Shown: in pieces, positions 16,595 to 45,303 of the stretch
How the letters are laid out: every line of letters begins with the position of its first letter
Numbering within the stretch: the stretch's first letter is position 1
Source of the DNA: Dehalococcoidia bacterium
GTDB taxonomy: Bacteria; Chloroflexota; Dehalococcoidia; Lucifugimonadales; UBA2985
DNA length: 64,000 bases
NCBI GenBank assembly: GCA_965221925.1
Contig: OZ244924.1
Location: 1,161,352 to 1,225,351 of the forward strand
Direction: 5' to 3'
Position numbers and translations under genes: made by a program
The notes under the pieces: generated by a model
Seen by the model: the letters and a program-made list of their open reading frames with translations, nothing else
The model's database searches: none
Told to the model about the DNA's origin: nothing

Positions 16595-17658
16595 ACGATG
16601 GCGGCCTTGCCGGGCTTGACCTCGACCTCCTTGACGAAGGAGTGGACGAACGCCTTGGTCTCGGTGAGCTCGCTGGTTTTGAGGAACTCGCTCATCTCGG
16701 CGGCGAAGGTGGCGATGGTGTCGGCGCTGTCGAGGAACTGCCGTCGCTCTGCGAGCAGCCCTCTCGCCTCCTCAGCGGCGGCCTCCAGCCTCTCTTTGCG
16801 CTCCCGGTGCTCCCTGATGCGGTCCGAGGCGTCGGCCATCTCGATGTCGGTGGTCTCGATGGCGTGCCATATCCGACCCAAGCGCCGCTTGACCTCCTCA
16901 AGCTCCTCCTCGATGGTCTGAAGCCTATGGCGCTGCTCGCGGGCGATGCCGTCCATCTCCTCGTCCACCAGCTTCACCAGGTCGCAGATGTTGCTCTCCG
17001 TGAGGATGTTCTCCCGGATGTTGCTGACGATCAGGTCCTCGAAGCGCTTAGAGTTGAGCCTGGGCGTCTTGCACATCCCCTGGCCCTTTTTGAGCAGGGA
17101 GTGGCAGACGTAGTAGGGGAACTGGCCGCTCTTGGAGTACTGGCCGGTGAGTGCCCTCTTGCAGGTCTTGCACTTGGCGATGCCGCTGAGCAGGTAGGGG
17201 CTGGAAGCCCGTCGGGGGTTCACCTTCTTGGGGGCGCGGGACCCCAGCAGCTTCTTGACCTTCCGGAACTCCCCCTTGGAGACGATGGCGGGGTGTGCGT
17301 CCTCGACCCGCACGGGCGGAGCGCCGTCCTTGGCGGTAGTCCCCCAGACCAGGGTGCCCGTGTAGGCTTCGTTGAGCAGCACGTTGTGGACGGTGGTCTT
17401 GAGCCACTGCTTTCCCCTGGGACTGGCAACGCCCTCGGCGTTGAGGGTCTTGGTCACGTCGAGGATGCTACTGCCCTGGAAGGCCATGTCGAAGATGCGC
17501 CGTACCACGGCGTCGGCGGGAGGGTCAACCTCCAGCTTGGGGCGCTTCTTCGGCCCGTCCTGGACGTAGACCCTCCTGTAACCGTAGGGGGCGTAGCTGG
17601 TGACCCAGAATTCCCTCGAAGCGGCCTCCCGCACCCCCCGCGTCACTTCTTGGGCCAA
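16399..17658 (-). pseudogene. C-terminal 418 codons of element B's large serine recombinase gene, whose 5' part is at 45266..45688
   Basis: Begins (L)AQEVTRGVREAASREFWVTSYAPYGYRRV, exactly after the resolvase domain, and is colinear with the 15395..16594 product. There is no catalytic domain upstream; attL follows instead. Confidence 0.85.
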
Positions 17659-17681
17659 GATATCGGTTATCCAATCAACAC
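17646..17681. other. attL of the 27.6-kb island (B arm, AA core, P' arm)
   Basis: CTTCTTGGGCC-AA-GATATCGGTTATCCAATCAACAC. The P' arm is the inverted repeat (20/23) of the arm at 45244-45266. Confidence 0.75.
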
Positions 17682-17951
17682 AAGAAAATCAGGTACACAT
17701 GGGCAGTGGGACTTGAGGTCAGTTGACGACAGGAGTTGATCGCGAGTCCTGTTTGGTTCGATCCCACGTAGGTTGGACAGCGTGTAGCAGGTGTCTCCGC
17801 GATTGTCTCTCTGTTCGATCAGGCCACAAGCGTTGACTAGGGTGTGCATCACCTGGCTGACTCGACCCTCGGAGACGCCCAGCCAGAGGGCCAGATGCTC
17901 GCTGGGATAATCGCGTGATCGGCCCCAATTGCCAGGATGGCTCAGCGTGAG
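17667..17951 (-). pseudogene. Winged-helix DNA-binding protein remnant with no canonical start codon
   Basis: The open frame reads ...RSRDYPSEHLALWLGVSEGRVSQVMHTLVNACGLIEQRDNRGDTCYTLSNL. The only ATG/GTG in frame (17852) lies inside the HTH. Confidence 0.35.
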
Positions 17952-17999
17952 TCAGAGGGTCTTGTGGTCATCTAAGCCGCCCTTGCTTAAGAATATCCG

Positions 18000-22588: not shown

Positions 22589-22627
22589 CGCACATCTTCG
22601 ATGAATCAGAGATAGAGGAGATAGCGG

Positions 22628-25600
22628 TTGACCATCGACACCGCAATCCGTGAAGGGCAGGTACTGACCGGGCCGCTGTTCAGTGAACCGATGCGGGTGG
22701 AGACCGTTCGCACGAACGGTCTGGGTTCCGTGGAGGCGGGCCTTGTCGGGCAGCGCACCGAGCAATTCCGGCGTGTTACGTTGACCTCAGTCGACATCGC
22801 GAGACTCGTTATCGCCGACCCCACCCTTTCATACAACAGCGACGGACGGCTCCTGCGCCTTGGCCTCCAGGCGTATTCCCTCGGCATTGCCCACGAGTTC
22901 GACCCCTACTTCGGGTTGTCCATCTCTCGAGTGGACCCACTACCCCACCAGCTTGAGGCCGTCTACGACTATCTCCTGAAGCTCCCCAGCGTACGGTTCC
23001 TGCTGGCAGACGACGCTGGGGCCGGTAAGACCATCATGGCCGGTCTGCTCGTCCGCGAGCTCAAGTTGCGGGGGCTGGCCGAGCGGGTCCTTGTTGTGTG
23101 CCCGGCGAACCTGACCTTCCAGTGGCAGCGGGAGCTGAGAGAGAAGTTCGACGAGCGGTTCTTTGTCCTGAAAGGCGGCGATATCCGAGACCAGTTCGGC
23201 GTCAACCAGTGGCTCGACCAGAAGCAGACCATCACGTCCCTCGACCTCGCCAAGCGCGAAGATATTCTTCCCGGTCTACGGCAGGTGCGTTGGGACTTGG
23301 TGATTGTCGACGAGGCCCATCGCATGTCGGCGCGGGACGAGACCCACAAGAGCCAGCGCTACAGGCTGGGTGAGCTGCTCCGGGACAGCGCCGACAACGT
23401 CTTGCTGCTCACAGCTACACCTCACAAGGGTGACCCTCACAACTTCACGCTGTTCCTACAACTGCTGGATCGAGACGCCTATGCCGACGTAAAGTCCATT
23501 CGCGAGGCGATGGAACGGCGGCGAGCGCCCTTCTACCTTCGCCGCACCAAAGAGGCGATGGTCTACTTCCCTGAGCGCCAGCTAGACGGCGCTTGGGTCG
23601 CCAAGCCCGTGTTCACAAAGCGAATCACACGCACGGTCGGCTTCACCATGGATGATGCCGAGTTCGAGCTGTACCAAGCGGTTACCCGGTTCGTGAAACG
23701 GCAAAGCGCCCGCGCTGCGGCCCAGGGCGACGACTCGAGGGCTCGCGCCGTCGGCTTCCTCATGTCTTTGTATCAGCGACGGTTGGCCTCCAGCGCCCAC
23801 GCGATGCGCCGTTCGCTTGAGAATCGGGCCAACCGCCTGGAAGAGGGACTAAAGCAGGCCCAAGACTTGGCGCGGACTGCGCCGCCGAGACTTCCCGACT
23901 GGGAGGACCTAGAAGAGCTTGAGGACACCGAGCGCGAACGTTTTGAGCGGATGCTGGAGGCGGTCACGCTAGCAGGGAACGCCGACGAAGTCCGCAAGGA
24001 GATTGCCGAGCTCAAAGAACTCGCGGCTCAAGCGACCGCCGTGGAGTCATCGGGTGAGGAGGCCAAGCTCAGCAGACTCAAGGACATCATGCAAGAGCAG
24101 GGGTTCTTCGAAGACCCGGACCAACGGCTGCTGATATTCACTGAGTTCAGGGATACCCTGGACTATCTTGTGGAGAGGCTGAAGTCCTGGGGCTTCCGGG
24201 TAGGCTCCATCCACGGGGGCATGAGGCCCGGCTCACGGGATGAGGTTGGCTCCCGTCTCTACACCGAACAGCAGTTCCGCGACGGAAACATCCAGGTCTT
24301 GGTGGCGACCGAAGCGGCCGGCGAGGGAATTAACCTCCAGTGCTGCCACATCCTCTTCAACTACGACATTCCCTGGAACCCGAACCGGCTAGAACAGCGC
24401 ATGGGGCGCATCCACCGCTACGGCCAGCGTTTCGACTGCCTCATTTTCAACTTCGTAGCGGCTAACACCATCGAAGGGCATGTGCTCCAACGCCTCTTGA
24501 CCAAGCTTCAAGAGATCAGGGATGCCCTCGAAGATGACGCCGTGTTCAATGTCGTTGGCGAGGTTTTGCCCGCCGCCCAGGTGGACCGGGTCTTTCGCAA
24601 CTACTACTCTGGTAAGCTGGGCGACGCCGATCTTGAGGACCGTCTGCTGAGGGACGTGGATGAGGGACGCTTTCGACAGATCTGTCAGACGGCGCTTGAA
24701 GGTTTGGCTGCCAAAAAACTCAACTTGGAGATGCTGGTGGAACGCCGCGCACGCGCCCAGGAGCGCCGGGTGGTGCCGGAATCCATAGCCCGCTTTCTAT
24801 CGGAAAGCGCTGAGCAGGCATCCCTCACCCTCAACCCGGTGCGCCACTTGCCTCACTCCTTCGAGCCGGGCCGAACGCCGACTGCCTTGAAGAAGTATGA
24901 GCGCGATCCCGACTGGAGCCTTACCGAGTTGGTGTCCCGCTATCCGCGCCTATCTACGGACCGGGACATAGCGGAGGAGCACAATCTGGAATGGGTCACG
25001 CCCGGTCATCCGCTGTTCGAGGCGCTCCGCCGCCATTGCGTCGAAACCAGCAGGGACGCCTTTGCCACGGGAGCCTGTTTTCACTCTCTTGACCACGAGA
25101 CCCCGGCGCGCCTTGATTTCTACCGGGCGCGGGTCGTCGATGGTCTCGGACACGTGATCCACGAGCGGCTCTTCACCGTGGAACTAGCGGAGGGCGGTGT
25201 GCCTTGCCTCCGGGAGCCGGAGATACTCGGCAACCTGACTCCCACTGCCGCTCCGGAGGGCCTTCCCACGGTGGCATCGCTATCGGAGCCAACCGACTGG
25301 CTGAACGAGCACGCATTCACCCCCTTCATCGAAGAGGTACGCGCCGAGCGGGTGGCAGAAGTCGACCGCATCGCAGAGCACGTCGAGCTGTCGCTGACCG
25401 AGGTGCTGCTGCGGACCGACCAGGAGGTCGGCCGCGCCTCCGAGGATATGGAGAAGCAGGTCACAGGCGCTGAGGGGCGCTTGGCCCAAGCCGAATCCCG
25501 TCACGACGAGGCTATGGCACGCCGCGAGCGGCGGCGGCGTGAGCTTACCCAGCAGAGAGCGCTCACACTTCAGGGCGTCGAACGACTGGCCAGCATTCTG

Positions 25601-26065
25601 ATCCTGCCCCACCCAGAGCGCGAGACTCCCGAAGTAAAGCGCCTACGTCCGAACGCCGAGACTGAGATGACCGCCATGCGGGTGGTGATGGAGTACGAGG
25701 CCGCCAAGGGCCGCCAGGTGTACGACGTTCACGAGAAGAACCTTGGCTACGACGTGACCAGCCTGGATGTGAACTCTGGCGTATTGCGCCTGATAGAAGT
25801 AAAGGGCTTGGCCTCCGCCTCGGGTACTATCCTGTTGTCGCCAAATGAACGCCGGGTGGCCGAGGACCGCCGCGACTGCTACTGGCTATACGTCGTCACC
25901 AACTGCGCTGCCGATCCGCAGCTACAGGATCCCATCGAAGACCCAGCCCGCTTCCCTTGGCATGAGGTCAGCAAGGTGCAGCACTACTGGCTGAACGTGG
26001 ATGCCATGACCAAGCCCATGAGGATTGCGGACGAGCGGGCGCAATATGGAGAAAGACATGATTGA
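22628..26065 (+). CDS. SNF2/RapA-type helicase with a C-terminal DUF3883 (endonuclease-fold) domain
   Basis: Helicase motifs are LLADDAGAGKTIMAG, LVIVDEAHRM, LLLTATPHKGD, ATEAAGEGINLQ and QRMGRIHRYGQ. The C-terminus YDVHEKNLGYDVTSLDVNSGVLRLIEVKG...CYWLYVV is DUF3883-like. TTG start follows AGAGGAG. Confidence 0.9.
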   Translation: MTIDTAIREGQVLTGPLFSEPMRVETVRTNGLGSVEAGLVGQRTEQFRRVTLTSVDIARLVIADPTLSYNSDGRLLRLGLQAYSLGIAHEFDPYFGLSISRVDPLPHQLEAVYDYLLKLPSVRFLLADDAGAGKTIMAGLLVRELKLRGLAERVLVVCPANLTFQWQRELREKFDERFFVLKGGDIRDQFGVNQWLDQKQTITSLDLAKREDILPGLRQVRWDLVIVDEAHRMSARDETHKSQRYRLGELLRDSADNVLLLTATPHKGDPHNFTLFLQLLDRDAYADVKSIREAMERRRAPFYLRRTKEAMVYFPERQLDGAWVAKPVFTKRITRTVGFTMDDAEFELYQAVTRFVKRQSARAAAQGDDSRARAVGFLMSLYQRRLASSAHAMRRSLENRANRLEEGLKQAQDLARTAPPRLPDWEDLEELEDTERERFERMLEAVTLAGNADEVRKEIAELKELAAQATAVESSGEEAKLSRLKDIMQEQGFFEDPDQRLLIFTEFRDTLDYLVERLKSWGFRVGSIHGGMRPGSRDEVGSRLYTEQQFRDGNIQVLVATEAAGEGINLQCCHILFNYDIPWNPNRLEQRMGRIHRYGQRFDCLIFNFVAANTIEGHVLQRLLTKLQEIRDALEDDAVFNVVGEVLPAAQVDRVFRNYYSGKLGDADLEDRLLRDVDEGRFRQICQTALEGLAAKKLNLEMLVERRARAQERRVVPESIARFLSESAEQASLTLNPVRHLPHSFEPGRTPTALKKYERDPDWSLTELVSRYPRLSTDRDIAEEHNLEWVTPGHPLFEALRRHCVETSRDAFATGACFHSLDHETPARLDFYRARVVDGLGHVIHERLFTVELAEGGVPCLREPEILGNLTPTAAPEGLPTVASLSEPTDWLNEHAFTPFIEEVRAERVAEVDRIAEHVELSLTEVLLRTDQEVGRASEDMEKQVTGAEGRLAQAESRHDEAMARRERRRRELTQQRALTLQGVERLASILILPHPERETPEVKRLRPNAETEMTAMRVVMEYEAAKGRQVYDVHEKNLGYDVTSLDVNSGVLRLIEVKGLASASGTILLSPNERRVAEDRRDCYWLYVVTNCAADPQLQDPIEDPARFPWHEVSKVQHYWLNVDAMTKPMRIADERAQYGERHD

Positions 26066-28751
26066 CACAGACGTAATTGCCGGTACTCGACGGCTTCCGT
26101 CGGGCGCACGCTTCTTCAAATGTGCGCTCCAAGTGAATCCTCACCACTACGCTAAGACCTTTCGCGGCAAAGAGACCGCCGGTAGTCCAGAAGATTACGC
26201 CAAAGTTATCGTTGAGAAGGCTGAGGAACTTGACGTGTCGGTCCTTGCCATCACCGACCATAACAGCGTCACTGATGTCCGGATGTTTCGGGATGCCTCT
26301 AAAGGTCGCAGCGTCACGATACTCCCTGGATTCGAGCTTACCTCCTCTGATGGTATTCACGTTCTTTGCATTTACCCTCCGCACATCGCTGAAGAGCAGC
26401 TCGAACGGTTCTTGGGTGAGTTCGGGATTCGAAAGACCGAACCCTCGTCCGACCCATCCGGTGAGCCTTTCGATGATATCCTCAAGAAAGTCCGCGAACA
26501 GGGAGGAATCAGCATTGCCGCGCATGTCACAACCGCGCACGGACTCTTTAGTGTCCTAGAGGGGCAAGCACGAATCCGAGCATGGCAGTCTAACGACTTG
26601 CTTGCTATCCAGATTCCCGGTCCTACCAATGACCTGTCCGATGACGCGCGACCGATAGTGGAGAACAAGAATCGTGACTACCACCGTGCCCATAGCGCCG
26701 GAGAGGAACTGGCGGTTGCCGTAGTCAATGCCAAGGACATCACGAAGCCCGAGGACTTGGAAGATGACTCCGCAACCTGTTGGATAAAGATGTCTGAGGT
26801 TACTATTGAAGGATTGCGTCAAGCTTTCCTCGATCCGGACTCTAGGATACGCCTCAATAGTGATCCCACGCCGGAAGAGCATGCAGAGCTAGTCTCGCTT
26901 GGATGGGAAGGTGGGTTCCTAGACGACACGGCCATCCACTTCAATCAGAATCTCAACGTTCTGGTTGGAGGACGTGGTGCTGGAAAATCCACCGTCATAG
27001 AGAGTCTGAGGTATCTGCTTGACTTAGAGCCTGTCGGCGAAGAAGCACGCAAGGCCCATCAAGGGCTAGTGCGCCAAGTGCTCCGCAGTGGGACGAAGGT
27101 CTCGCTTCGTATACGCTCCTACCGTCCGGGGAAACAAGAATATCAAGTGGAGCGGACCGTGCCCAACCCACCTGTAGTCCGCGACGAGAATGGTCAGATT
27201 TCGAATCTCCTCCCTTCAGATATTCTCCCTCGGGTTGAGATTTACGGACAGCATGAAATATCCGAACTCGCCAGAAGTCCTGAGAAACTCACCTCGTTAC
27301 TCACTCGCTTCGTCAGGCGCGACGAAGCACTAGAAAGGCGCAAGGCTAGCGTGCGCCGGGACCTTGACCAGACCAGAAAGTCTCTTGGTGACGTGAGCTC
27401 TGAGATCCAGCAAATCGATGAGCGCATGTCTGCACTACCGGGCCTAGAGGAAACACTCAAGCGCTTTCAGGACGCTGGCCTTGAAGACCGTTTGCGCGAG
27501 CAGAGCCTCCTGGTTCGTGAAGAGCGTGTGCTCAATTCGATTCCTGAGCGTACGCGGGTTTTCCGAGAGTGCCTAGAGATGATCCGAGGGGAATTGCCTA
27601 TAGACCGTGCCTTCTTGTCAGAGAAGGCCCTTGAAGAGCTGCCCGGTAAAGACATTCTCACGGACGCCAACGGGGCACTCGAACGTCTTAGCCGTGACCT
27701 CGAGCAGATCGCGCAACAGATTGAGGAAGCGCTCCAACGAGCTGACGCAGGAATCAAAGAGGTTCAGGCCCGCTGGGGCGAACGTAAACGCGATGTAGAA
27801 GCTGCTTACCAGAAGATACTGCGGGATCTACAGCAGTCGGCTGTGGATGGGGAGGAATTCATCCGACTGAGACGTGAGATTGAAGGATTGCGCCCTCTAC
27901 GTGAGCGGCGACCTTTACTGGAAAGACTAGAGAGAGAACACCAGCAACATCGGCGCGAATCCCTTGCTGAGTGGGAGGACCTTAAATCCACCGAGTTTCG
28001 ATTGCTCGACAGCGCAGCAAGGAGCGTAAGCCACAAACTACGAAACCGTGTTCAGATTGAAGTCATTGCCGCAGGCAACCGGGAGAGCCTCTTCAACGTG
28101 TTCAAGGAGGAGATTGGAGGTCGCCTCTCGGAAGCCATAGACAGAATTAGGCAACTGTCAGAAGTCTCTTTACCTGAGTTCGTCAAGTGCTGTCGGGACG
28201 GTGCGGAGGCAGTTGAAAAGAAGTACGCGATTCCACCATCTCAAGCAGAACGGCTCGCCAAAGCACCCTCCGAGACCCTAATGCGTATCGAGGAGTTGGA
28301 GCTGCCACCAACAACAGTGATTAAGCTTAACACGGCCTCCGCTGGCGATCTCCCTTCCTGGCGTTCGCTCGACGAGCTCTCTACCGGCCAGAAGGCTACT
28401 GCGGTGCTCCTCCTTCTGCTGCTAGAGTCCGATGCGCCCCTCATCGTCGATCAGCCTGAGGACGACCTTGACAATCGCTTCATCACAGAGGGTGTAGTGC
28501 CTAAGATGCGGGAGGAGAAACGCCGCCGACAGTTTGTCTTCTCCACTCACAACGCGAACATTCCAGTCCTTGGTGATGCGGAACTAATTCTGGGGCTCAC
28601 CCCATTGGGTGAAGCAGGGAGGGGGAAGGCGACCATCAGACATGAGCATATGGGTTCGATCGATGATCGTCCAGTTCGCGAACTCGTTGAAGAGATACTT
28701 GAAGGAGGCAAAGATGCCTTCGAGACACGAAGGCTAAAGTATGGCTTCTGA
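26058..28751 (+). CDS. PHP-domain phosphoesterase fused to an SMC/RecF/OLD-like ABC ATPase with a long coiled coil
   Basis: PHP motifs are FKCALQVNPHHY, LAITDHNSV and ISIAAHV. The P-loop is VLVGGRGAGKSTVIESL, followed by ~400 aa of coiled coil and the signature/Walker B LSTGQKATAVLLLLLLESDAPLIVDQPEDDLD. ATG 26058 follows GGAG and overlaps the helicase stop; TTG 26025 and ATG 26046 are alternatives. Confidence 0.8.
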   Translation: MIDTDVIAGTRRLPSGARFFKCALQVNPHHYAKTFRGKETAGSPEDYAKVIVEKAEELDVSVLAITDHNSVTDVRMFRDASKGRSVTILPGFELTSSDGIHVLCIYPPHIAEEQLERFLGEFGIRKTEPSSDPSGEPFDDILKKVREQGGISIAAHVTTAHGLFSVLEGQARIRAWQSNDLLAIQIPGPTNDLSDDARPIVENKNRDYHRAHSAGEELAVAVVNAKDITKPEDLEDDSATCWIKMSEVTIEGLRQAFLDPDSRIRLNSDPTPEEHAELVSLGWEGGFLDDTAIHFNQNLNVLVGGRGAGKSTVIESLRYLLDLEPVGEEARKAHQGLVRQVLRSGTKVSLRIRSYRPGKQEYQVERTVPNPPVVRDENGQISNLLPSDILPRVEIYGQHEISELARSPEKLTSLLTRFVRRDEALERRKASVRRDLDQTRKSLGDVSSEIQQIDERMSALPGLEETLKRFQDAGLEDRLREQSLLVREERVLNSIPERTRVFRECLEMIRGELPIDRAFLSEKALEELPGKDILTDANGALERLSRDLEQIAQQIEEALQRADAGIKEVQARWGERKRDVEAAYQKILRDLQQSAVDGEEFIRLRREIEGLRPLRERRPLLERLEREHQQHRRESLAEWEDLKSTEFRLLDSAARSVSHKLRNRVQIEVIAAGNRESLFNVFKEEIGGRLSEAIDRIRQLSEVSLPEFVKCCRDGAEAVEKKYAIPPSQAERLAKAPSETLMRIEELELPPTTVIKLNTASAGDLPSWRSLDELSTGQKATAVLLLLLLESDAPLIVDQPEDDLDNRFITEGVVPKMREEKRRRQFVFSTHNANIPVLGDAELILGLTPLGEAGRGKATIRHEHMGSIDDRPVRELVEEILEGGKDAFETRRLKYGF

Positions 28752-29990: not shown

Positions 29991-29992
29991 CT

Positions 29993-33659: not shown

Positions 33660-33682
33660 GTGAGGGGGTAAGAGTCTTGCCA

Positions 33683-36472
33683 ATGGAACCCTGGTACAAA
33701 GTAGTAACTCTCCGGAAGGAAGTCCGCGAAGGGCGGTCCTTTAGCCCGGACGAATTCGCCATCGCCTTGGAGCAGGTGGTTGCAGGGACTGCGCCGCCGG
33801 ACTACAGCGACCCGGCGCAGTTCTTCTCCCGCACCTGCTTCACACGCGCGCTGACGGAGCACTCCGGCATGGTGCTGCGACGCCTGTCCGGTAGGACGGA
33901 GAACACCGCGCCAGTCCTGACACTCATCACCCAATTCGGCGGCGGAAAGACCCACACCCTCGCCTCGCTGTATCACCTCGCCAATGCCGGACGGGATGCC
34001 GGCGCTTTGCCCGGCGTCTCGGAGCTTCTGCGGGAATCAGGAATCTCTGAGGCCCCTGCCGCTCGTGTCGGCGTCTTTGTTGGCAACGCCTGGGATCCGT
34101 CCGAGGGGAAGGAGACCCCCTGGATCGATTTGGCCCGGCAACTGGCGGGCAATGATGGCGTCGCCGCCCTCGGCAGCGCAGCAGAAACAACACCCCCTGG
34201 GACCGAGGCATTGGCAAGGGTGTTCGCCGCAGCCAATGCGCCCGTGCTGCTCCTGTTCGACGAGGTGCTGAACTTCGTCAACCGCCACCGTCCCATGGCC
34301 GACTCCTTCCATGCATTCCTTCAGAACCTCACTGTCGCCGTCACCGGTTCGACCCATGCGGCTGCGATCGTCAGCCTGCCCCGCAGTCAGATTGAGATGA
34401 CCGAGTGGGACCAGGAGTGGCAAGACCGCATCACTAAGGTCGTGCGCCGCGTCGCTCGCGACCTCATCGCCAACGGCGAGTCGGAGATCAGCGAGGTCGT
34501 TCGCCGACGCCTGTTCGAGGACCTGGGTAGCGAGCGTGTTCGACGACGCATCGCCCAGACCTTCGCGGACTGGTGCTTCGAGCGTAGCGCGCGCCTTCCC
34601 TCGGAGTGGACGGCCGTGGACACGGCTACTAAATCGCCGAGAGGGAGGGATGTTCTCAGGAGCCGCTTCGAGGCGTGCTATCCCTTCCATCCCGCGACCC
34701 TCTCCGTCTTCCAGCGGAAGTGGCGCGCCCTCCCCCAGTTCCAGCAGACACGGGGCGCGCTGGCAATGCTGGCGCAATGGATTTCCTGGACCTCACGGGA
34801 GCAGTTCCGGCAAGCGCGGACGGAGCCGCTTATCACCCTTGGGTCCGCGCCTCTGGACGTACCGGAGTTCCGCGCGGTGGTCCTAGGACAGCTGGGCGAG
34901 TCCCGTCTCGACGTAGCCATAGACGCAGACCTCGCTGGGGAGACGGCGCAAAGCAGTGCCCTGGACGCAGATACCAAGGGGGCTCTACGCGACATCCACC
35001 GCAGGGTTGGCACAGCGATCCTGTTTGAGTCCTCCGGCGGACAGGTCGACAAGGTGGCACACCTGCCGGAGCTGCGATTCGCCCTCGGCGAGCCGGAGAT
35101 CGAAACGACTACCATCGACAATGCTGCCTCGGCCTTGGAGAAGTCCGGCTTCTTCATGCGCAAGGTCGGTACGGACGGCTATCGCATCCACCATCAGGCG
35201 ACGCTGCGGAAGGTGGTCAGCGATCGGCGCGCCTCCCTTGACGAGGAGACAGAGATCAAGCCTGCAGTCCGCAAGGTCGTGCAGGAAGAATTCACCCGCG
35301 GCGCACCGGTTCCCGTCAACTACTTCCCGGAGGATGGCGACGCAGTGCAGGACTCGCCCCGCCTGACGCTGATCGTCCTGGACCCTGCGGAAGAGTGGCG
35401 GGGGAGCGACCAGCTTGCAGAACGCATTGGCCGTTGGACCAAGGAACGTGGGAAGTCCCCGCGACTCTACCCTGGGGCATTGGTCTGGTGCGCCAGGAAG
35501 CCGGGGCGTGAGCTGCGTGAGAGCGTCGAGTTGTGGCTTGCCTGGCGAAGAGTGGCCCAGGAGGTTTCGCAGGGCATTCTTGGCGCTGAGTTTGACCAGG
35601 CGGAGCGCGCCGATTTGCAGGCCAGGGTCAGGGATGCGGAAGAGGCGGCCAAGGACGAGGTATGGGTGGGGTACCGCTTCGTGGCGCTGGGGGATACGCA
35701 AGCGTCGGATGGGCTGAAGGTGATCGACCTCGGCTCCGGCCATTCCAGCGGGAGCGAGACGCTCTGCGGGCGCGTTATCGCTGCGTTGAAATCGGGGGCG
35801 TTGCTCAACGAGTCCGTGGGCGCAGGGTACATCGATCGACATTGGCCGCCAGCGTTCAAGGAGGCGGGAGCCTGGCCGCTAACCAGTCTGCGCCAGAGTT
35901 TCCTGAACGGAGCTTTGACTCGACTGATGGACCCGGACGCCGTGCTTCGACAGCGGATTGTGGAGTTCGTGGATGCAGGAGACTTTGGGCTGGCCTCAGG
36001 AGATAAGGGAGGCGGCGAATATGAAAGGGTGTGGTACAGGGAACCGGTAGGGACGGATGAGGTAGCTTTTGAGTCTGGGGTCTTTCTGTTGACCAAGGCC
36101 AAGGCTGAGCAACTTCGGAAGACACCCGATGACACGAAGCCCGCGCAACCGGACCCTCAGCCTAACCCAAGCACTACGACTGAGCCGGATCCCCCGCCCG
36201 GTCCTGGCGAAACCCAGGTCGGGCTTCCCATCCAGACTGGTCAGAGAGCGACACTGCGTATCAAGGGAACCGTGCCCCCGGAAGTCTGGAATCGGCTCGG
36301 AACGCGATTCCTGCCGAAGCTGCGTTCTGGTGATGACTTGATCGTGGGCGTCGAGTTCTCTGTAAGCGTCGATGCAGGTCTATCACAAGGCTTCCAGTTG
36401 GAGTTGCGGCAAGCCCTCACAGATCTAGGTCTCCAAGAACAAGTATCGGTGGAGACATCGCAAGGTCAGTAG
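33683..36472 (+). CDS. DUF499-family ATPase
   Basis: MEPWYKVVTLRKEVREGRSFSPDEFAIALEQVV...PAQFFSRTCFTRAL...LITQFGGGKTHTLASLYHL. ATG 33683 follows GAGGGGG; TTG 33656, overlapping the DUF5615 stop, is the alternative start. Confidence 0.85.
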   Translation: MEPWYKVVTLRKEVREGRSFSPDEFAIALEQVVAGTAPPDYSDPAQFFSRTCFTRALTEHSGMVLRRLSGRTENTAPVLTLITQFGGGKTHTLASLYHLANAGRDAGALPGVSELLRESGISEAPAARVGVFVGNAWDPSEGKETPWIDLARQLAGNDGVAALGSAAETTPPGTEALARVFAAANAPVLLLFDEVLNFVNRHRPMADSFHAFLQNLTVAVTGSTHAAAIVSLPRSQIEMTEWDQEWQDRITKVVRRVARDLIANGESEISEVVRRRLFEDLGSERVRRRIAQTFADWCFERSARLPSEWTAVDTATKSPRGRDVLRSRFEACYPFHPATLSVFQRKWRALPQFQQTRGALAMLAQWISWTSREQFRQARTEPLITLGSAPLDVPEFRAVVLGQLGESRLDVAIDADLAGETAQSSALDADTKGALRDIHRRVGTAILFESSGGQVDKVAHLPELRFALGEPEIETTTIDNAASALEKSGFFMRKVGTDGYRIHHQATLRKVVSDRRASLDEETEIKPAVRKVVQEEFTRGAPVPVNYFPEDGDAVQDSPRLTLIVLDPAEEWRGSDQLAERIGRWTKERGKSPRLYPGALVWCARKPGRELRESVELWLAWRRVAQEVSQGILGAEFDQAERADLQARVRDAEEAAKDEVWVGYRFVALGDTQASDGLKVIDLGSGHSSGSETLCGRVIAALKSGALLNESVGAGYIDRHWPPAFKEAGAWPLTSLRQSFLNGALTRLMDPDAVLRQRIVEFVDAGDFGLASGDKGGGEYERVWYREPVGTDEVAFESGVFLLTKAKAEQLRKTPDDTKPAQPDPQPNPSTTTEPDPPPGPGETQVGLPIQTGQRATLRIKGTVPPEVWNRLGTRFLPKLRSGDDLIVGVEFSVSVDAGLSQGFQLELRQALTDLGLQEQVSVETSQGQ

Positions 36473-37920: not shown

Positions 37921-38457
37921 TTAGCCTGCTTCGACCATGTCCTGCTCAACTTGTTGTGAGGGGGCAAGACTCTTCTTAGACAACTGACGGGACCTGGCAG
38001 TCCTGCGCTCGGCGGGAGCGTCAGCACTCTCGTCGCGCACGGCGAGGTCCGCGACCATATCCCAGTCCAGTGCTATGCCCAGGCACTCCTCGGCAGCAAG
38101 AAACCAGTTCCGGGCCTGCCGCCACTCGTAAATCAGGTCCTCCACTTTGCGCTGCGCCGCCGCACCCGGGCGCCACCAGGGTGGGCCGTTTCTAGTCCCG
38201 GTACGTCCGCTCTCATCGGCGCCGGTCTCATCGCTGGCGGGGGTCTCTGGCGCCGTGGCTGCGTGGCTCAGCACCAAGGCGGCCATTTGTCTCTCAACCC
38301 GACGCTGGTGACTGGCATGCGCCCGCCGCTGTCCGTCGAGTGCGGTTCTCGGTTCCTCTAGGCCGCTTCGGAGCCCCTCCTCCAACGCATCGAGCCGCTT
38401 CCCCAACTGGACGTTGCGCTTTCGCTGCCCGGGGGCGGCACAGCCTTCTCCATCAGC
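37921..38457 (-). pseudogene. Partial third copy of the HTH/coiled-coil family (coiled-coil and C-terminal parts only)
   Basis: ADGEGCAAPGQRKRNVQLGKRLDALEEGLRSGLEE parallels GVGSAADRQRERSDKLEARMDKLEAQLKEMKENLRSGLKG of the neighbour, and VEDLIYEWRQARN parallels LIVEWRELK. It abuts the stop of 38453..39181 in a frame offset by one at a GGG run. Confidence 0.3.
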
Positions 38458-39181
38458 CCACGCCCACGTCGGACAAATGGTCCTTAACCTCTTGCGAGCA
38501 GGCAAGGTTCCTCCGTGACACCCGAGTCGGCCCAGGAATCCCAGGCTCGGAGGGCGCATCAGCTTTCTCGTCACTACGGCCGGGTGGCGCCGACGTGCCC
38601 CACTCGACCACCCCGTTCGTCCGCTCCCTTGCATCCACCAACTCGGCCAGTGTCGGGTCCGTGAGCTTCCCTGGGAACCCTGTGCCGGCTGCGACGCTTC
38701 TCGCCCCAGGACCGCCACTCCCATCATCTGTGGGTGCTCCGGTTTCCGTACTGTCACGGTCCGCTTCCAAGACCAAGAGACGCTGCTCGATTAGCCGACG
38801 CTGTACGCCGTAGTATTTCCGCACCCCGTCCAGTGACATCCTCAATCCCTTGAGACCGCTCCTGAGATTCTCCTTCATCTCCTTGAGTTGGGCCTCCAGC
38901 TTGTCCATCCGGGCCTCCAGCTTGTCGCTGCGCTCCCGTTGCCTGTCGGCTGCGGATCCCACTCCGTGCTGAAGCGCCCTTTGCAGGCTCTCACGCACCC
39001 GGTGTGTCAGCTGGCCCGACTGCATGCTGGAGGTCACCGTCCTGGGGTCGATCTCCAGCACCCGCGCAGTACCTGTGCACCCCCATGTCCGCACCAGCTC
39101 CTGCAACAGCGCCATGAGCCTCAGGTGGTGCATGTCTCGAACACTATTTCTCCCTACGATGAGTGGATCTTTGCGTTTCAT
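38453..39181 (-). CDS. HTH + coiled-coil regulator-like protein (paralog 2)
   Basis: MKRKDPLIVGRNSVRDMHHLRLMALLQELVRTWGCTGTARVLEIDPRTV...GVGSAADRQRERSDKLEARMDKLE. ATG 39181 follows GAGGGGG. The C-terminal tail diverges from the family. Confidence 0.6.
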   Translation of the reverse strand: MKRKDPLIVGRNSVRDMHHLRLMALLQELVRTWGCTGTARVLEIDPRTVTSSMQSGQLTHRVRESLQRALQHGVGSAADRQRERSDKLEARMDKLEAQLKEMKENLRSGLKGLRMSLDGVRKYYGVQRRLIEQRLLVLEADRDSTETGAPTDDGSGGPGARSVAAGTGFPGKLTDPTLAELVDARERTNGVVEWGTSAPPGRSDEKADAPSEPGIPGPTRVSRRNLACSQEVKDHLSDVGVG

Positions 39182-39282
39182 TCGGCCCCCTCTCTCTCTG
39201 TATAAACCGTCCATATGTTCAATCTCTTTGTCCCGGCACAACGCCACCGAACCGGCTAGAACACCCCAGCACCCCGGTCCGG

Positions 39283-40116
39283 CTACTTCCACAGACGTCG
39301 GAAGGTCAGCGTGTTCAGAAGCTCACGCTTCTTCAGCGCCCTCCGCGTGTCGGAGAGCGCTGTCTTCCGCCAGTTGACCTGGCCGTTGCGGTCGAAGCCC
39401 CGCAGAGGAAACGTCGCCGGGGGAAGCGTCAGCCCGTGCTCCTCCAAGAGCGTCAGCTCCAACGCCAGGAACCGCTCCTCGGTCGTCAGCCAGGACAGGC
39501 TCTTGCCTTCGTCGGGATGAACGGCCTTAAGCTCCCGCCACTCAACGATCAGGGACCAGACCTCGCCGAACATGTCCTCGTCGTCCTCGGCGGGCTCCAA
39601 CGTCACGAGGTCGGGGAACTCCCGCCGCAGCGTCGCTCTTCGCCTGAGCTGCGGGCCGGCGCCGTTCGCCTGCGCCCCGTCCTGCCCACCCCGTCCCGTC
39701 TCAAGACCCGCCAGCATCTTCTCCACCTTGTGAAAGCCCTGGGCCACCTCCTCCCGAATGGCCCTGTCTCTGTCCTCGCTCGCCCTGTTGTTCGCCCGCA
39801 TCTCCTTGCCCTGCTCCTCGACCTTGCCTTCCAGCTCTTCCAGCCGGTCCGCCAGCTGGTCGTTGCGGTCCCGCTGCTCGGCGGCTGCGGAGCCCACACC
39901 TGCTTGAAGAGCCTTGTCCAACGCTCCCCGCATGCGCCTCGACAGCGCCCCCTCATCCAGGCTGATGTCCAGCGTCCTGCGGTCCACCCCCAGGAGCTCG
40001 GCAGCCTGCTTCCGACCGTGTTCCCGCTCCAGCTCTTGAAGCAGCGCCATGAGCCTCAGGTGGTGCATGTCGGCCACCTCCCCGCTGCCTTCGATGACTG
40101 GTCTTCTCTGTTTCAT
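39283..40116 (-). CDS. HTH + coiled-coil regulator-like protein (paralog 1, apparently complete)
   Basis: MKQRRPVIEGSGEVADMHHLRLMALLQELEREHGRKQAAELLGVDRRTL...GVGSAAAEQRDRNDQLADRLEELE...EDDEDMFGEVWSLIVEWRELK. ATG follows GGGAGG. Confidence 0.7.
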   Translation of the reverse strand: MKQRRPVIEGSGEVADMHHLRLMALLQELEREHGRKQAAELLGVDRRTLDISLDEGALSRRMRGALDKALQAGVGSAAAEQRDRNDQLADRLEELEGKVEEQGKEMRANNRASEDRDRAIREEVAQGFHKVEKMLAGLETGRGGQDGAQANGAGPQLRRRATLRREFPDLVTLEPAEDDEDMFGEVWSLIVEWRELKAVHPDEGKSLSWLTTEERFLALELTLLEEHGLTLPPATFPLRGFDRNGQVNWRKTALSDTRRALKKRELLNTLTFRRLWK

Positions 40117-40771: not shown

Positions 40772-41624
40772 CTCATGCCTCCTGTAGGGGGTGGCCCATT
40801 TTTGTAATCGGGGCCTCTCTTCCGCCGGACTGGGGCCTTAACTCAAAGTGTTCACAGAAACCGTCCAATGTACCCCGAAACCATGCTGCTTCCCTAGCTA
40901 AATGGCCCAGAATGTCCGTTTCTACCCAAAGTCTCTTTTCCCTGTACAGCCCCTTGACTGCAATTGGCCTCTGGACCGATGGGCCAACCTGGGCCACCTG
41001 TGGAGCAATCGCATCCCCTGAAAGTGCTCGATTTGGGATTGATGCCTTCGCCCTGAACGGCTTATCCCCTTCAGATATCGCCGCTGGGCGGTGTCCAGGC
41101 CGGAGGCGCATGCCTGCCGCTGCTCCGCCTCCAATCACAGCACAACGAAGGCCGCCTGCAAATCCCTTGGAAGGGGCGACATTTGTGTACCCCCGTTCAG
41201 GCAGTTTCCCACCGAGCTGCGGCCGTTCACACTTGAATCGAGCGGCCCGGGTCCCCGCTGGCGGTCTCGCCGCGAATAGGCCGAGCGAAACCGAGCTCAT
41301 GGTTGCGAAGACGCCGCCGGCGCCTGTGCCCCCGACCATGCCAGCGGCCGATGCGCCGACCGTCAATCACTCTGGGCAAAGGTAGCTGCAACTGGACGAT
41401 ATGAAAGATACGAAGACGGAACTCACCAGCCAGGGAGAGGCAATGCACGGCCGGAAGGGGCTCTCTTCCAGATGCCCGGCACGCCGACCACTGTTGACGG
41501 GCGTCGGCGTGATGCGGTCAGACCCGTTTCACAAGCGGCATCAGTGGCCGCTGACGCGTTCATCGATCAGCCAAGAGGCCCCGAACCTGACAGTCCAGCG
41601 GGTCGCGCCCCTTCTCCTGCAACA

Positions 41625-42145
41625 CGTCCCTGCTGTCCTCGATGCCGTGTTCGGTCGTTTTCTTCGACTTTCATCCTTCCCAAACCTCCGTCTGAACCTC
41701 CGGTCGGCTGAGGTCCGGCCGTTCCCCTGGTCTTCGGCCAGGTTTTTGGGGCACGTCATGCACCCCCACTTCAAGCGCCATTTTCGGGGCCTAATGTCAT
41801 TGGGACGCCGCCCCCACGGACCCGCCGATGTCATTCCCCCCGTTTGGCGATGTCATTGCAGTCCGGAACGCACCCTTTCTGAAAGTGTTCACTGGTTACG
41901 TCCTGTAGGGGGGCAATTTACCCCTGTTTCAGCTACGAAATCACGACTCTGGCCGCTCTGTTACAAAACTGAAACTCCTGTACACCCCCAATACTGCACG
42001 AAAGAGGCCGAAAAAAAGAGAGTCCATAGCCCCCCGCATTCGTGCGCAGAGCCACGGGGGGACGGCCCGTAACGCCCCGCATTCGTGCGCGGAGTTATGA
42101 GGGGTCTTATTTCCAGTTTCATTTGGTCACACTTTTTGCGACCGC
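41625..42145. repeat. Conserved non-coding module, copy 2 (copy 1 at 655..1178)
   Basis: Same block order as copy 1. It includes a decayed remnant of the HTH gene start (ATGAAAGTCGAAGAAAACGACCGAACACGGCATCGAGGACAGC on the minus strand at ~41640-41682), three ATGTCATT repeats and the 21-bp direct repeats at 42032-42052 and 42075-42095. Confidence 0.85.
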
Positions 42146-42148
42146 AAC

Positions 42149-42349
42149 ATGAAAGATCCCAACGGACAGAACAGAAGGCGAAAGCCCACCAGGGACGCCC
42201 CCGAGCTGAGGGTCGTCGGCATCGACGTCAAACCCGCGCCCGACGCCCAGGACCGGCTGCGCCGAATCTTCACCATCCTGCTGGAACACGCAGCCGGCGA
42301 GAGGCACGCCGCGCCCGACGAGGACTCCCTTCCAGAGGCGGAAGCCTGA
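42149..42349 (+). CDS. Hypothetical 66-aa protein
   Basis: Starts directly after the conserved module. Its stop overlaps the ATG of the next gene (TGATG). No recognisable motif. Confidence 0.35.
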   Translation: MKDPNGQNRRRKPTRDAPELRVVGIDVKPAPDAQDRLRRIFTILLEHAAGERHAAPDEDSLPEAEA

Positions 42350-43502
42350 TGCAGCCGGAACGGCGCCCAACCGACGTCACCCACTACCAGGCCGTCTTCG
42401 GCGACGTGTCGAAGATCATCGACGCCGCCAGGGAGTCGGCCGCCCGCTCGGTGAACGCCGCCATGACCGCCGCGTACTGGCTGGCCGGGCGGCGCATCAT
42501 CGAGTTCGAGCAGTCGGGACAGGAGCGGGCCGAGTACGGGGCCGCGCTGATCGAGAGGCTGGCCGAGGACCTGACCGTGCGGTTCGGGGACGCGGCTTCT
42601 CACGCCAGAACATCCAGAACATGCGCCTGTTCTACCTCTCATACCCAATCGGGCAGATTCGCCAGACACCGTCTGGCAAATTGGCTCGACTCCCCGCACG
42701 GCAGATTCGCCAGACGCCGCCTGGAGAATTCGATCCCCCATCCGTCGAGGTGCGCTTCGACGACCTTCGCACGGCCTTTCCGCTGCCTTGGTCCGCCTAC
42801 GTGCGGCTGCTGTCGGTCAGGGACGAGCACGCCCGCGCCTTCTACGAAGCCGAGGCGCTGCGCGGGGGATGGTCGGTCCGCCAGCTCGACCGGCAGATCG
42901 GCTCCCAGTTCTACCAGCGCACGGCCCTATCGAAGAACAGGGCCGCCGTGCTCGCAGATGGGCAGAGGAAGCGTCCAGAGGACATCGCACTTCCCGGCGA
43001 GCAGATCAAGGACCCCTTCGTCTTGGAGTTTCTGGACCTAAAGGATGAGTACTCCGAGAGCGACCTGGAGGAGGCCCTCATCCGCCACCTGGAGACCTTC
43101 CTCTTGGAGTTGGGAGACGACTTCTGCTTCATGGGCAGGCAGAGGCGTCTGCGCGTCGGCGGTCGGTGGTACCGGGTGGACCTACTGTTCTACCACCGGA
43201 GCCTGAGATGCCTCGCGGTCATAGACCTGAAGATCGGGGCGTTCACCCACGCCGACGCCGGGCAGATGCACTTCTACCTGAACTATGCGCGGGAGCACTG
43301 GATGCGCGAGGGAGAGAACCCGCCCGTCGGACTGATCCTATGCTCCGAGAAGGACGAGGCGCTGGCGCAGTATGCCCTGGAGGGGCTGTCGAACAAGGTA
43401 ATGGCTGCGGAGTACCGGATCGCCCTGCCCGACGAGACGGTCCTGGCGGCGGAGCTCGACCGGACGAGGCAGGCGATGGAGCAGCGCCCGGACGCTCTTT
43501 GA
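42349..43502 (+). pseudogene. DUF1016/YhcG-type PD-(D/E)xK nuclease with a frameshift at the G run 42586-42589
   Basis: Frame 1 reads MQPERRPTDVTHYQAVFGDVSKIIDAARESAARSVNAAMTAAYWLAGRRIIEFEQSGQERAEYGAALIERLAEDLTVRF. Frame 3 continues GRGFSRQNIQNMRLFYLSYP...WSAYVRLLSV...LEFLDLKDEYSESDLEEALI...DLLFYHRSLRCLAVIDLKIG. Both halves are typical of DUF1016. Confidence 0.8.
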
Positions 43503-43686
43503 TGCCATCCTGTTCAACGCGGTAAAATGGCGGGCAGAGGTTGGCCCGGCGATGCTGCAAACACCCCGGTCCGTGGCGCCACCTGTTGGGACAGGTGATG
43601 CGAAGTAATTGTACTACTCGCAGACCCGCTCCCGGCAGGAGGCGGGTCTTCTTCATTTTGGAGGGTAAGAAAGAGAGGAGGGAGCC

Positions 43687-45303
43687 ATGCCGGGGATCAA
43701 GGTGAAGCGCCGTAAGGCGAAGGAGAACAGGGCAGCCATATACGCCCGCGTCTCCGACCAGAGCCAGGACACGGAGGACAAGACATCCATCACGGAGCAG
43801 ACGTCCGAAATGGAGGCCCACTGCGAACGCCGGGGGCTGACCGTCGTCGCCCGCTACCAGGAGGTGGGCCAGGGCTGGTCGAAGAAGCGCCCTGAGTTCC
43901 AGAGGATGCTGGCCGACGCCAAGCGCGGACGTTTCGACACCATCGTCTGCTGGAAGTCCGACCGCCTCAGCCGGGGCATGTACCCCGCCGCCGCTCTTAT
44001 GGAGGTCGTCGAGGCCCATCAGATAGAGCTTGAAGCCGTTATGGACGCCATCGACATGAAGACCTTCGGCCTCATGGCCGCCATCGGCAAGATCGAGCTG
44101 GACAACTTCAGGGAGCGCGCGTCGATGGGCAAGCGGGGCACGGCCAAGCAGGGGCGCATCCCGGTCAGCAACATCCCCTACGGATACCGCGTCCGAGACG
44201 ACGGCAGGCCCGAGATAGTGGAGTCCGAGGCCGAGGTCGTGCGGCGCATCTACCGCATGTGCGTGAAGGACGGACTGGGGGCGCGGGTGATCGGCCAGCG
44301 GTTGATGGCCGACGGCGTTCCCGCAGCCAATAATGCCAAGCGGTGGTGGGACGGTCAGGTCTACCGCGTCCTGAGCAACGAGACCTACAAGGGAACCTGG
44401 TGGTACGGCAAGGCCCGCTACATCTCGACGGAGGACGGGATACGGGTCCACGAGAAGGACAAGGAGACGTGGATACCGGTGCCGTTCCCTGAGATAGTGG
44501 ACGAGCACACCTGGGACCTGGCGCAGAGCATCATGAAGAAGCGAAGGACCCGCTCCGGGCGCAACACCAAGATATTCTACCTGTTGCAGCACATGGTCCG
44601 GTGCACCGGGTGCGGGATGCTCATGGGATGCATGGCCACCAGGAAGCGGACAGTCAAGCGCAACGGCAAGGTCTACAAGTACGAGCTGGAGACTCCGCGC
44701 CGATACTACAAGTGCTATGGAGTGCAGCATTTCCGCACGGGATGCCGGGAGCACACGATGATCCGGGCGGAACGGCTGGAGGGCCTGGTCTGGGGCCAGG
44801 TCAAGAAGGTGATGGAGAACCCCGACCTCATCGTCGCTGGAATCGAGTCCCTGGACTCCCAGGAAGGCGAGGGGTTGGAGAAGCAGATCGCCGGGACGGA
44901 GCGCGAGCTCCAGAAGGTGCAGTTCGAGGAGGACCGGGCCATCAGGCTGTACGTGTCAGAGAAGATAACCGAGGAGCAGCTGGACCGGCAGCGCAAGTTC
45001 ATCACCGAGAGGCTGGAAACTCTGAGGGCGAGGCTGGCCGACTACCGGGCCAAGGAGACCGCCTCAATTGAGAAGCGGGCGCTGGGGGAGCACGTGGTGG
45101 AATGGGCTAACAGGGTTGGCGACGGGCTGGACGACCTGCCCCAGGAGAAGCGGCGAGACGTGCTGCGGCTGCTGCTGGACGAGGTGACCATCGACGGGGA
45201 GAACAACGTCAATCTCACGCTGGCAGTCCCAACCGAAGAGTTGGTGTCGATTGGATCACCGGTATCAAATTCTCACTGTAGAATTCGTCCACGGACTCGA
45301 TGA
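43687..45303 (+). CDS. Large serine recombinase (integrase of element C); the only uninterrupted one in the window
   Basis: AAIYARVSDQSQ...VCWKSDRLSRG (resolvase domain), a recombinase domain PYGYRVRDDGRPEI, a zinc-ribbon CTGCGMLMGC...YYKCYG and a coiled coil. ATG follows AGAGGAGGGAG. The ORF crosses attR, so its last 12 codons are flank-encoded. Confidence 0.9.
   Translation: MPGIKVKRRKAKENRAAIYARVSDQSQDTEDKTSITEQTSEMEAHCERRGLTVVARYQEVGQGWSKKRPEFQRMLADAKRGRFDTIVCWKSDRLSRGMYPAAALMEVVEAHQIELEAVMDAIDMKTFGLMAAIGKIELDNFRERASMGKRGTAKQGRIPVSNIPYGYRVRDDGRPEIVESEAEVVRRIYRMCVKDGLGARVIGQRLMADGVPAANNAKRWWDGQVYRVLSNETYKGTWWYGKARYISTEDGIRVHEKDKETWIPVPFPEIVDEHTWDLAQSIMKKRRTRSGRNTKIFYLLQHMVRCTGCGMLMGCMATRKRTVKRNGKVYKYELETPRRYYKCYGVQHFRTGCREHTMIRAERLEGLVWGQVKKVMENPDLIVAGIESLDSQEGEGLEKQIAGTERELQKVQFEEDRAIRLYVSEKITEEQLDRQRKFITERLETLRARLADYRAKETASIEKRALGEHVVEWANRVGDGLDDLPQEKRRDVLRLLLDEVTIDGENNVNLTLAVPTEELVSIGSPVSNSHCRIRPRTR
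45244..45286. other. attR of the 27.6-kb island (P arm, AA core, B' arm)
   Basis: GTGTCGATTGGATCACCGGTATC-AA-ATTCTCACTGTAGAATTC. Confidence 0.75.

Follow-up and report, generated by a model that had tools for sequence, protein, structure and literature searches.

The stretch of DNA analysed here, called the window below, comprises 64,000 nucleotides of a Dehalococcoidia bacterium (contig OZ244924.1, positions 1,161,352 to 1,225,351, of assembly GCA_965221925.1). Positions 17659-45266 of the window together with one AA dinucleotide very probably represent a 27.6-kb integrative island, which was inserted by its own large serine recombinase (LSR), called Int, into the attB site of another recombinase gene, called LSR-B. 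The interrupted gene is, judging by its neighbourhood, the integrase of a conjugative element with a type IV secretion system (T4SS). This is a refinement beyond the original prediction, which had been made from the window letters and described one integrated element with reconstructable attachment sites and with defence genes as cargo. The observation itself is confirmed and lies well beyond chance.

Junctions and reconstructed attachment sites

Both junctions are exactly as claimed and can be read directly in the window letters: CTTCTTGGGCC-AA-GATATCGGTTATCCAATCAACAC on the left side (17646-17681) and GTGTCGATTGGATCACCGGTATC-AA-ATTCTCACTGTAGAATTC on the right side (45244-45286). The two 23-nt inner arms (17659-17681 and 45244-45266) had been described as inverted repeats of each other, and direct comparison gave the same 20 of 23 matching positions around the common AA. 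This similarity ends at 23 nt, with none beyond. As a refutation it had been considered that the arms might be a dispersed repeat. With up to three mismatches allowed, the inner arm occurs at only two places in the 64-kb window, which are the two island ends, and the number of copies expected by chance is 0.00 (none in 100 dinucleotide-preserving shuffles of the window). Therefore, the arm is not a dispersed repeat.

When 17659-45268 is removed and 17658 is joined to 45269, the minus strand contains an open frame of about 560 aa that runs through ...VDEFYSENLAQEVTRGV.... The reconstructed LSR-B begins with MNDRLNLTPV... and shows no indel compared to thousands of intact homologues. The predicted 48-bp attP is GTGTCGATTGGATCACCGGTATCAAGATATCGGTTATCCAATCAACAC and the predicted repaired attB is ...CTTCTTGGGCCAAATTCTCACTGTAGAATTC.... 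As in other LSR elements, the attP is an imperfect dyad around a 2-nt core, the core occurs once per junction and the attB matches empty sites in related genomes.

A further segment of 26 nt within a 173-aa open reading frame (ORF) of the island (40463-40488, GTAGATTTCGTCCACGGACTCGACGA) matches the B' flank at 45278-45303 in 24 of 26 positions. The bases upstream of it do not form a proper att site.

Recurrence of the insertion point in related genomes

A scan of one genome per GTDB species revealed 269 relatives of Int, and 80 of these 269 loci were compared. A metagenome contig of the ENA (L001) and the window itself were counted beside these 80 genome loci. The latter are nearly all metagenome-assembled genomes (MAGs) of Dehalococcoidia, a few bearing just the label Chloroflexota or Tepidiformaceae. 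The int gene terminates in the P arm in L001 and in 39 of the 80 genome loci; there, the arm is followed by AA or AG and then by antisense sequence of the LSR-B type. Together with the window this makes 41 attR junctions, and in all of them the insertion codon is the one after VDEFYSEN (VDEFYSEN-L). If only the clade with an Int identity of at least 69% is considered, the site is used by 39 of 52 loci. Junctions of the attL type were found at the mirror position in five cases (the window, a second island in L001 at 13630, L053, L054 and L055). That the arms are element ends is thus supported by 41 loci with P arm and core abutting the same codon and by four attL junctions besides that of the window.

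A search of related genomes for the empty attB had been suggested, and uninterrupted sites were found in L002, L003, L065 and L070. Those of L002 and L003 encode the identical VDEFYSENLAQEVTRG without an indel. Together with the open frame this bears out the DEFYSENL-AQEV reading, which the joined outer flanks had been said to restore. The idea would have been contradicted by related genomes in which the two recombinase halves are never contiguous. However, 4,743 proteins match LSR-B at E<=1e-20, and those listed, 120 in number, have identities of 80-85% over the full length (100% query coverage).

For the dyad-symmetric attP, a natural junction of the same architecture was found in L073. There, ...CGATTGAACCACCGGCATC-AG-GATATCGGTTATCCAATCAAC... 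is contiguous (6640-6690) and represents P-AG-P', as predicted from the joined arms. The contig is 3.07 Mb long, and the junction is found 6.6 kb from its end, downstream of an Int homologue. On one side, the junction is followed by Replic_Relax, DUF3800 and helix-turn-helix (HTH) genes, and on the other side by a ParA-like gene and a transposase. Possibly, this is an unintegrated or tandem element which uses the Int family.

The window was further compared to L001, L004 and L005. For the terminal 420 nt of the island, identity amounts to 99.5%, and for the adjoining 420 nt outside of it to about 80%; this break coincides with the predicted crossover. Therefore, the islands entered diverged copies of the target recently and independently. 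From the compared loci, recurrence of the site and recent, independent insertions can be regarded as demonstrated.

The interrupted gene and its conjugative element

Pfam assigned Resolvase to the right-hand piece of LSR-B, and Recombinase and Zn_ribbon_recom to the left-hand piece. A ribbon-helix-helix (RHH) gene at about 45709-45942 precedes LSR-B, and an RHH_1 gene is also located upstream of the intact LSR-B homologue in L002 and of the LSR-B fragment in L001. After insertion, the N-terminal product consists of 141 LSR-B residues followed by 15 unrelated ones, and the C-terminal piece is left without the catalytic domain. As the catalytic domain is cut off from the rest, the LSR-B integrase must be inactive until the island leaves.

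The paralogue LSR-A (14912-16594, plus strand) bears DEFYSDNLAMEVLRGM at 15311-15358 and had been presented as an uninterrupted copy. This holds for the insertion site, but LSR-A as a whole is not intact. Its frame is interrupted by a TGA at 15383-15385, a codon that is TGG (Trp) in homologues, so that the integrase of the left-hand integrative and conjugative element (ICE) also looks inactive.

LSR-A is located at the end of this left-hand element, whose segment 3394-14028 encodes a Replic_Relax protein, a coupling protein, a T4SS pilin and a VirB4-like ATPase. In the window, LSR-A is flanked by T4SS and relaxase-like genes. LSR-B holds the equivalent position in a second, inverted element, where RHH and Replic_Relax are the next genes. 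DNA homologous to 3394-14028 directly adjoins the target LSR in L006, and in L004 and L005 it adjoins a paralogous LSR a few kb from the target. Because DNA of T4SS elements lies beside target-type LSRs, the target family can be considered as the integrase of T4SS-type ICEs. Integrative and mobilizable elements (IMEs) reside in or next to conjugative elements, and the same was found here: next to the target LSR family, there are genes for a T4SS, a coupling protein and relaxase-like proteins.

LSR-A (plus strand) and LSR-B (minus strand) overlap tail to tail at 16399-16594, with the centre at about 16495-16504. The conserved C-terminus of the LSR family ends with ...STVRHGGP, and the tails beyond differ among homologues, which suggests that the family's own crossover is located in its 3' end. 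In 16399-16594, one P-type end passes straight into another (P_A - CCCACCAGG - reverse P_B). Such an arrangement may have arisen by attR x inverted-attR recombination of two ICEs; alternatively, a single element may possess two convergent integrases that surround an attP.

The island integrase

The integrase gene is found at the right end of the island, as originally described. Its product is of full length and contains the Resolvase catalytic, Recombinase and zinc-ribbon domains, which are the three domains of LSRs. The catalytic motif AIYARVS occupies residues 17-23. The nearest solved relatives in a PDB sequence search are SPbeta SprA (YokA) and the TP901-1 integrase. More than 1,100 database proteins match Int at E<=1e-20, with identities of 67-98% among the 120 matches listed. 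An exact-protein look-up of the window Int and of protein P0003 gave no record. Near-identity searches of both flanks against the plasmids of PLSDB gave no match, and the viral collection IMG/VR contained neither a match to the Int protein nor one to the att pattern.

The P arm and the core lie inside the last codons of int, and the final 11 codons stem from the antisense strand of the target gene. In the integrated state, int ends with ...PVS-NSHCRIRPRTR (11-aa tail); for the circular form, the predicted end is ...PVS-RYRLSNQHKKIRYTWAVGLEVS (22-aa tail). Selection on the circular-form tail was considered and rejected, as left ends of the L053 type are frame-broken by an indel with the DNA still conserved.

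Backbone and cargo of the island

The features of the island and of its target are listed in Table 1. From about 38.5 kb to the right end, the window is 96-99% identical to L001, L004 and L005 (blastn). This part of the backbone comprises two HTH paralogues with a small ORF on the minus strand, a 523-nt stretch, a YhcG nuclease and Int. The backbone also includes the left-end block at the opposite end of the island. This block of about 45 nt is conserved in both clades, even between islands with different P' arms. Copies of this block are distinguished by an indel, which argues against protein coding. It may be a site for an accessory factor or a promoter. A GGTTCGATCCC-like string near 17790 was considered as a tRNA gene and rejected, since a tRNA search found none. 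Rfam gave no match over the whole window.

A third paralogue of the HTH proteins is encoded in the neighbouring ICE (window ~1-700). The 523-nt stretch (41623-42145) is 86% identical to 654-1178, which in the left-hand ICE separates the T4SS genes from this third paralogue. Conservation is lower (71-78% identity) for the HTH regulator genes next to it. Three ATGTCATT repeats and two tandem GC hairpins were found in the stretch, and a core of about 170 nt recurs upstream of Int in L007-L014. RNA folding of the hairpins (41990-42125) was not better than that of shuffled sequences (z = -0.63). The stretch is a candidate for a shared operator/promoter or for an oriT. The YhcG gene, which is frameshifted in the window, is intact in L001 (383 aa).

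The proposal that defence genes form the cargo was substantiated, as HmaA, HmaB, HmaC, a Ppl-like protein, a Schlafen/AlbA protein and a toxin-antitoxin-like pair are encoded within the island. Co-located HmaA, HmaB and HmaC, by which an Hma system is recognised, are present, with HmaB frameshifted. The N- and C-terminal halves of the HmaB profile match two ORFs separately, which is due either to a frameshift or to a sequencing error. Two low-GC ORFs at 18000-21763 had no match in Pfam, PADLOC or the PDB sequence search and are candidates for new cargo or defence genes. In the same slot, L004 carries a SMODS cyclase and L005 a PKD-repeat protein with an IS21 element, and such differences in cargo were observed between islands with 98% identical Int. 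Therefore, the cargo slot is exchangeable on a shared backbone.

Outside of the island, the right-hand element (48750-57674) contains a defence-like cluster of its own, with a TIR-domain protein, a PLD-SNF2 helicase (1080 aa) and a 1325-aa Eco57I-type methylase.

Table 1. Features of the island and its target gene in window coordinates.
Feature	Coordinates	Strand	Basis and remarks
LSR-B C-terminal part (Recombinase, Zn ribbon, coiled coil)	16399..17658	-	Pfam; tblastn, residues 132-528
attL	17636..17681		B arm to 17656, core AA 17657-17658, P' arm GATATCGGTTATCCAATCAACAC 17659-17681
Left-end block inside P' arm	17682..17730	.	Alignment A1; consensus ACACAAAAAACTGCGGTACTCGTGGGCGGTAGGCCTGGAGGC
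Low-GC ORF, 636 aa	18000..19910	-	GC 0.56; no recognisable family
Low-GC ORF, 562 aa	20075..21763	-	GC 0.51; no recognisable family
HmaA, SNF2 helicase with NOV_C nuclease-like C-terminus	22628..26065	+	PADLOC HmaA E=6.5e-172; Pfam SNF2-rel_dom, Helicase_C, NOV_C
Embedded Ppl-like PHP-domain ATPase	26025..28751	+	PADLOC Ppl E=4.2e-42; Pfam AAA_21, AAA_23, PHP
Embedded Schlafen/AlbA_2 and HATPase_c_4 protein	28761..29990	+	Pfam
HmaB DNA methylase	29636..33011	+	PADLOC E=4.3e-66, 2.6e-48; two frames, 29636-30787 and 30540-33011
Toxin-antitoxin-like pair: 33055-33306 and DUF5615/PIN-like gene 33303-33659	33055..33659	+	Pfam for 33303-33659 only; 33055-33306 without assigned family
HmaC AAA+ ATPase (DUF499)	33656..36472	+	PADLOC HmaC E=1.3e-92; Pfam DUF499
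Two tandem paralogous HTH proteins (MHHLRLMALLQEL...)	38453..40116	-	Translations, repeats D1-D4, blastn
Apparently non-coding region	41623..42145	.	Repeats D13, blastn
YhcG/DUF1016 PDDEXK nuclease	42085..43502	+	Pfam; frameshifted by a 2-nt insertion near 42586
Int, 538-aa large serine recombinase	43687..45303	+	Pfam PF00239, PF07508, PF13408
attR	45244..45292		P arm GTGTCGATTGGATCACCGGTATC 45244-45266, core AA 45267-45268, B' arm ATTCTCACTGTAGAATTCGTCCAC
LSR-B N-terminal catalytic domain, residues 1-141	45269..45688	-	Pfam Resolvase

Other target sites of the integrase family

In a sister clade, whose Int is about 67% identical and whose P arm is GCAATTGGAAACCCCGAACC, insertion takes place at LSR residue 246, behind NEAYTGT. 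This site is represented by L052-L056, L065 and L070 and, from the main clade, by L035. L052 and L056 contain a whole 10.6-kb island, whose arms match in 14 of 23 positions around AG and whose attB is in frame as EVYTGTLVWG. Double occupancy was found in L053, L054 and L055. There, both islands are present and the LSR fragment covers only residues ~141-246, which are 105 codons (~11570-11890).

In a further clade (L050, L051, L061-L063, L068, L071, L074, L075; junction at ~11563), Int abuts a conserved sequence encoding ...QASRRSWRIGQ..., which we take to be motif VI of SNF2 helicases; Pfam gave no match on the short fragment. In L077 and L078, it abuts a ...MNPCPCG-like sequence, which is presumably ComM/Mg-chelatase-like. 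Single insertions of the main clade are located in unrelated host genes for an M28 peptidase, an IrrE-like protein, an inositol monophosphatase and a glyoxalase. An insertion into an MFS transporter (L060) belongs to a 66%-identical Int relative. By inspection, the flanks of the host-gene insertions share the B' pattern ..TC...GTA.A.

In L083 (~11557-11600), the flank following the Int homologue encodes VPMPDDSLIPG on the same strand, which is a C-terminal end of the LSR-A type. It may be a third target site in the LSR gene family.

Proposed mechanism and alternative explanations

According to the proposed mechanism, Int would drive a conservative recombination of attP with attB by a 2-nt crossover. 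The attB lies in the coding sequence of the alpha-E helix (VDEFYSEN-LAQEV) of LSR-B, which is part of the RHH-LSR integration module of the ICE. Insertion splits the catalytic domain of LSR-B from the DNA-binding domains and so inactivates the integrase, and precise excision would restore it in frame. With attP inside the 3' end of int, the tail of Int comprises 11 aa in the integrated form and would comprise 22 aa in the circular form. The conserved backbone surrounds a variable cargo slot, which is occupied here by an Hma system with embedded defence genes. On the sequence level, an insertion of the LSR type at a defined 2-nt core in the alpha-E region of the putative ICE integrase gene is demonstrated. 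We infer that the island may still excise and be mobile at present, that it may spread as a passenger of its host ICE or be mobilised by it, and that the shared upstream region may couple its expression to ICE induction.

Several observations weigh against this reading. Among the main ORFs of the island, no relaxase or mobilisation domain was found, and no oriT or directionality factor was recognised in the island. It should be considered that recombination directionality factors share no common signature. An isogenic empty site was not found, the closest intact LSR-B homologue among the matches listed being 85% identical. The attP pattern GGNANCARGATATCGGTTAT gave 53 matches in JGI metagenomes, none of which extends into either arm, so that they are chance or unrelated matches. 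Both HmaB and YhcG are frameshifted in the window, and a decaying copy or assembly errors are possible. Finally, frequent switching of the core is required by close relatives that carry AA or AG cores and identical P arms.

The insertion might be real and due to serine recombination, with the window copy being a fossil that is no longer mobile. We consider this possible, though on the whole rather unlikely. The two frames of HmaB and the 2-nt insertion in YhcG would fit to it, although such frameshifts might be assembly errors. The premature TGA of LSR-A points in the same direction, as the region looks like an accumulation of decaying mobile elements, and attP was detected neither in IMG/VR nor in the JGI metagenomes. 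In contrast, no domain is missing from the full-length Int, the att sites at both ends are intact and have the same core, and copies with 98-99.5% identity in about 80% identical targets imply a very recent movement of the lineage.

A second alternative concerns the position of the crossover, for which the original prediction had chosen AA. Both attL and attR of the window hold CAA, so CA or AA fits the window locus alone. Of the 41 attR junctions, 12 have an AA core and 29 an AG core, identical P arms occur with either core, and all 41 read C-A-R. This constant CAR prompted a model in which the crossover is CA (45266-45267 / 17656-17657), and the third base, which is A or G between islands with identical P arms, appears as if it came from the target. 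The model was rejected on attL and empty-site evidence and is improbable. The attL of L001 and L053 reads G-AG, and the empty sites of L002, L003 and L070 read A-AG (that of L065 has an AA core). Therefore, the base in front of the core varies and stems from the target, and the constant C in attR can be explained as the last base of the P arm. In addition, the axis of dyad symmetry runs between the two bases of the core, and the natural attP of L073 reads ...ATC-AG-GATATC.... For the window island, the AA crossover is thus borne out by attL, empty-site and dyad-axis evidence. The core corresponds to the first two bases of the target Leu codon on the sense strand, which are TT here and CT in most relatives. 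Cores of LSR sites were described to be modular (PMC10083194). A difference between A and G would leave a G-T wobble in one product, which may be tolerated occasionally.

Large serine integrases are best known from temperate phages, and SPbeta SprA is the nearest solved relative of Int. A prophage or phage satellite is nevertheless very unlikely, as Pfam found no structural, packaging or lysis domains among the main ORFs, IMG/VR contained no relatives of Int and no att pattern, and the backbone regulator and upstream region are in common with the T4SS element. A chimeric join at recombinase-gene repeats during assembly can practically be dismissed, although the source appears to be of MAG type and the region contains three paralogous recombinase genes and several frameshifts, since the same junction occurs base for base in about 40 independent assemblies with diverged flanks and the arms are unlike the target sequence, so that there is no repeat for a mis-join.

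Beyond the preferred reading of an island inserted by its own Int, it is conceivable but doubtful that such islands are dedicated hyperparasites or switches of ICEs. They would then split the integrase reversibly at one of the two conserved motifs and thereby hold the ICE in its position as long as they are present. They would sense ICE induction via the shared regulator and upstream region and couple their excision to integrase repair and conjugative transfer, and the AA/AG cores would track the Leu codons TTR/CTN.

Significance and comparison with known systems

With its 48-bp attP, its attB, its two usable cores and about 40 variants of the target found in nature, the island family represents a fully specified, naturally replicated serine-integrase system. 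It stems from a phylum with almost no genetic tools. Defence systems (Hma, CBASS-like) are exchanged in the cargo slot of one island backbone. The hunting of conjugative elements, described for Firmicutes, would now also comprise Chloroflexota, with the integrase gene of the host element as a novel type of target. This raises the question whether an ICE is immobilised or regulated by the island that it carries. A literature search gave no example of an LSR island with an LSR or ICE integrase gene as its target; coverage was incomplete, and this is absence of evidence only.

Intervening elements after whose excision a gene is rebuilt by an LSR are known from Bacillus subtilis (skin/SpoIVCA and SPbeta/SprA in spsM) and from Anabaena (fdxN element/XisF). 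As in these systems, a coding sequence is split by a large element with the LSR at one end, and excision is predicted to restore the frame. In contrast to them, there is no sign of programmed or developmental excision here, and the interrupted gene belongs to another mobile element and not to the host.

The Hma (helicase-methylase-ATPase) system with embedded genes was described before (PMC8565338, the PADLOC paper; bioRxiv 10.1101/2024.01.29.577857). The window resembles it by HmaA, HmaB and HmaC in this order, with strong profile matches and defence-type genes nested between them. It differs by the split of HmaB over two frames, and an anti-phage role is putative here.

With the systems of phiC31, Bxb1, TP901-1, A118 and SPbeta SprA, the island has in common a three-domain LSR, an imperfect-dyad attP of about 50 bp and a weakly symmetric attB. 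The 2-nt core is identical in attL and attR, and the core dinucleotide is modular as in phage-type LSR systems (Durrant et al. 2022, PMC10083194). Unlike these systems, the island is apparently not a phage, its attP overlaps the 3' end of int so that the Int tail changes on integration, and the natural AA and AG cores match two Leu codon families of the target.

IMEs of Firmicutes with serine recombinases insert into conserved genes of ICEs of the Tn5252 superfamily, namely Maff2-like, SNF2-like and traG/VirD4 genes (Guedon et al. 2017, PMC5704250), and were described as hunters of conjugative elements (PMC5704250). The island resembles them by a single LSR, by insertion into a conserved coding sequence of a conjugative element with disruption of the gene, and by the possibility of several islands per ICE. 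Their SNF2 target is echoed by the ...QASRRSWRIGQ... clade, whose presumed SNF2 identity had no match in Pfam. In contrast to these IMEs, the target is the integrase gene of the ICE itself with two conserved motifs, the phylum is Chloroflexota (Dehalococcoidia), and the cargo consists of putative anti-phage defence genes and not of antibiotic resistance genes. In addition, no relaxase or oriT was recognised in the island, which is at most a candidate IME. As far as the sequence can tell, the recombination chemistry and site architecture are conventional and of the phage-type serine integrase kind, and the lifestyle is closest to that of the serine-recombinase IMEs of Firmicutes.

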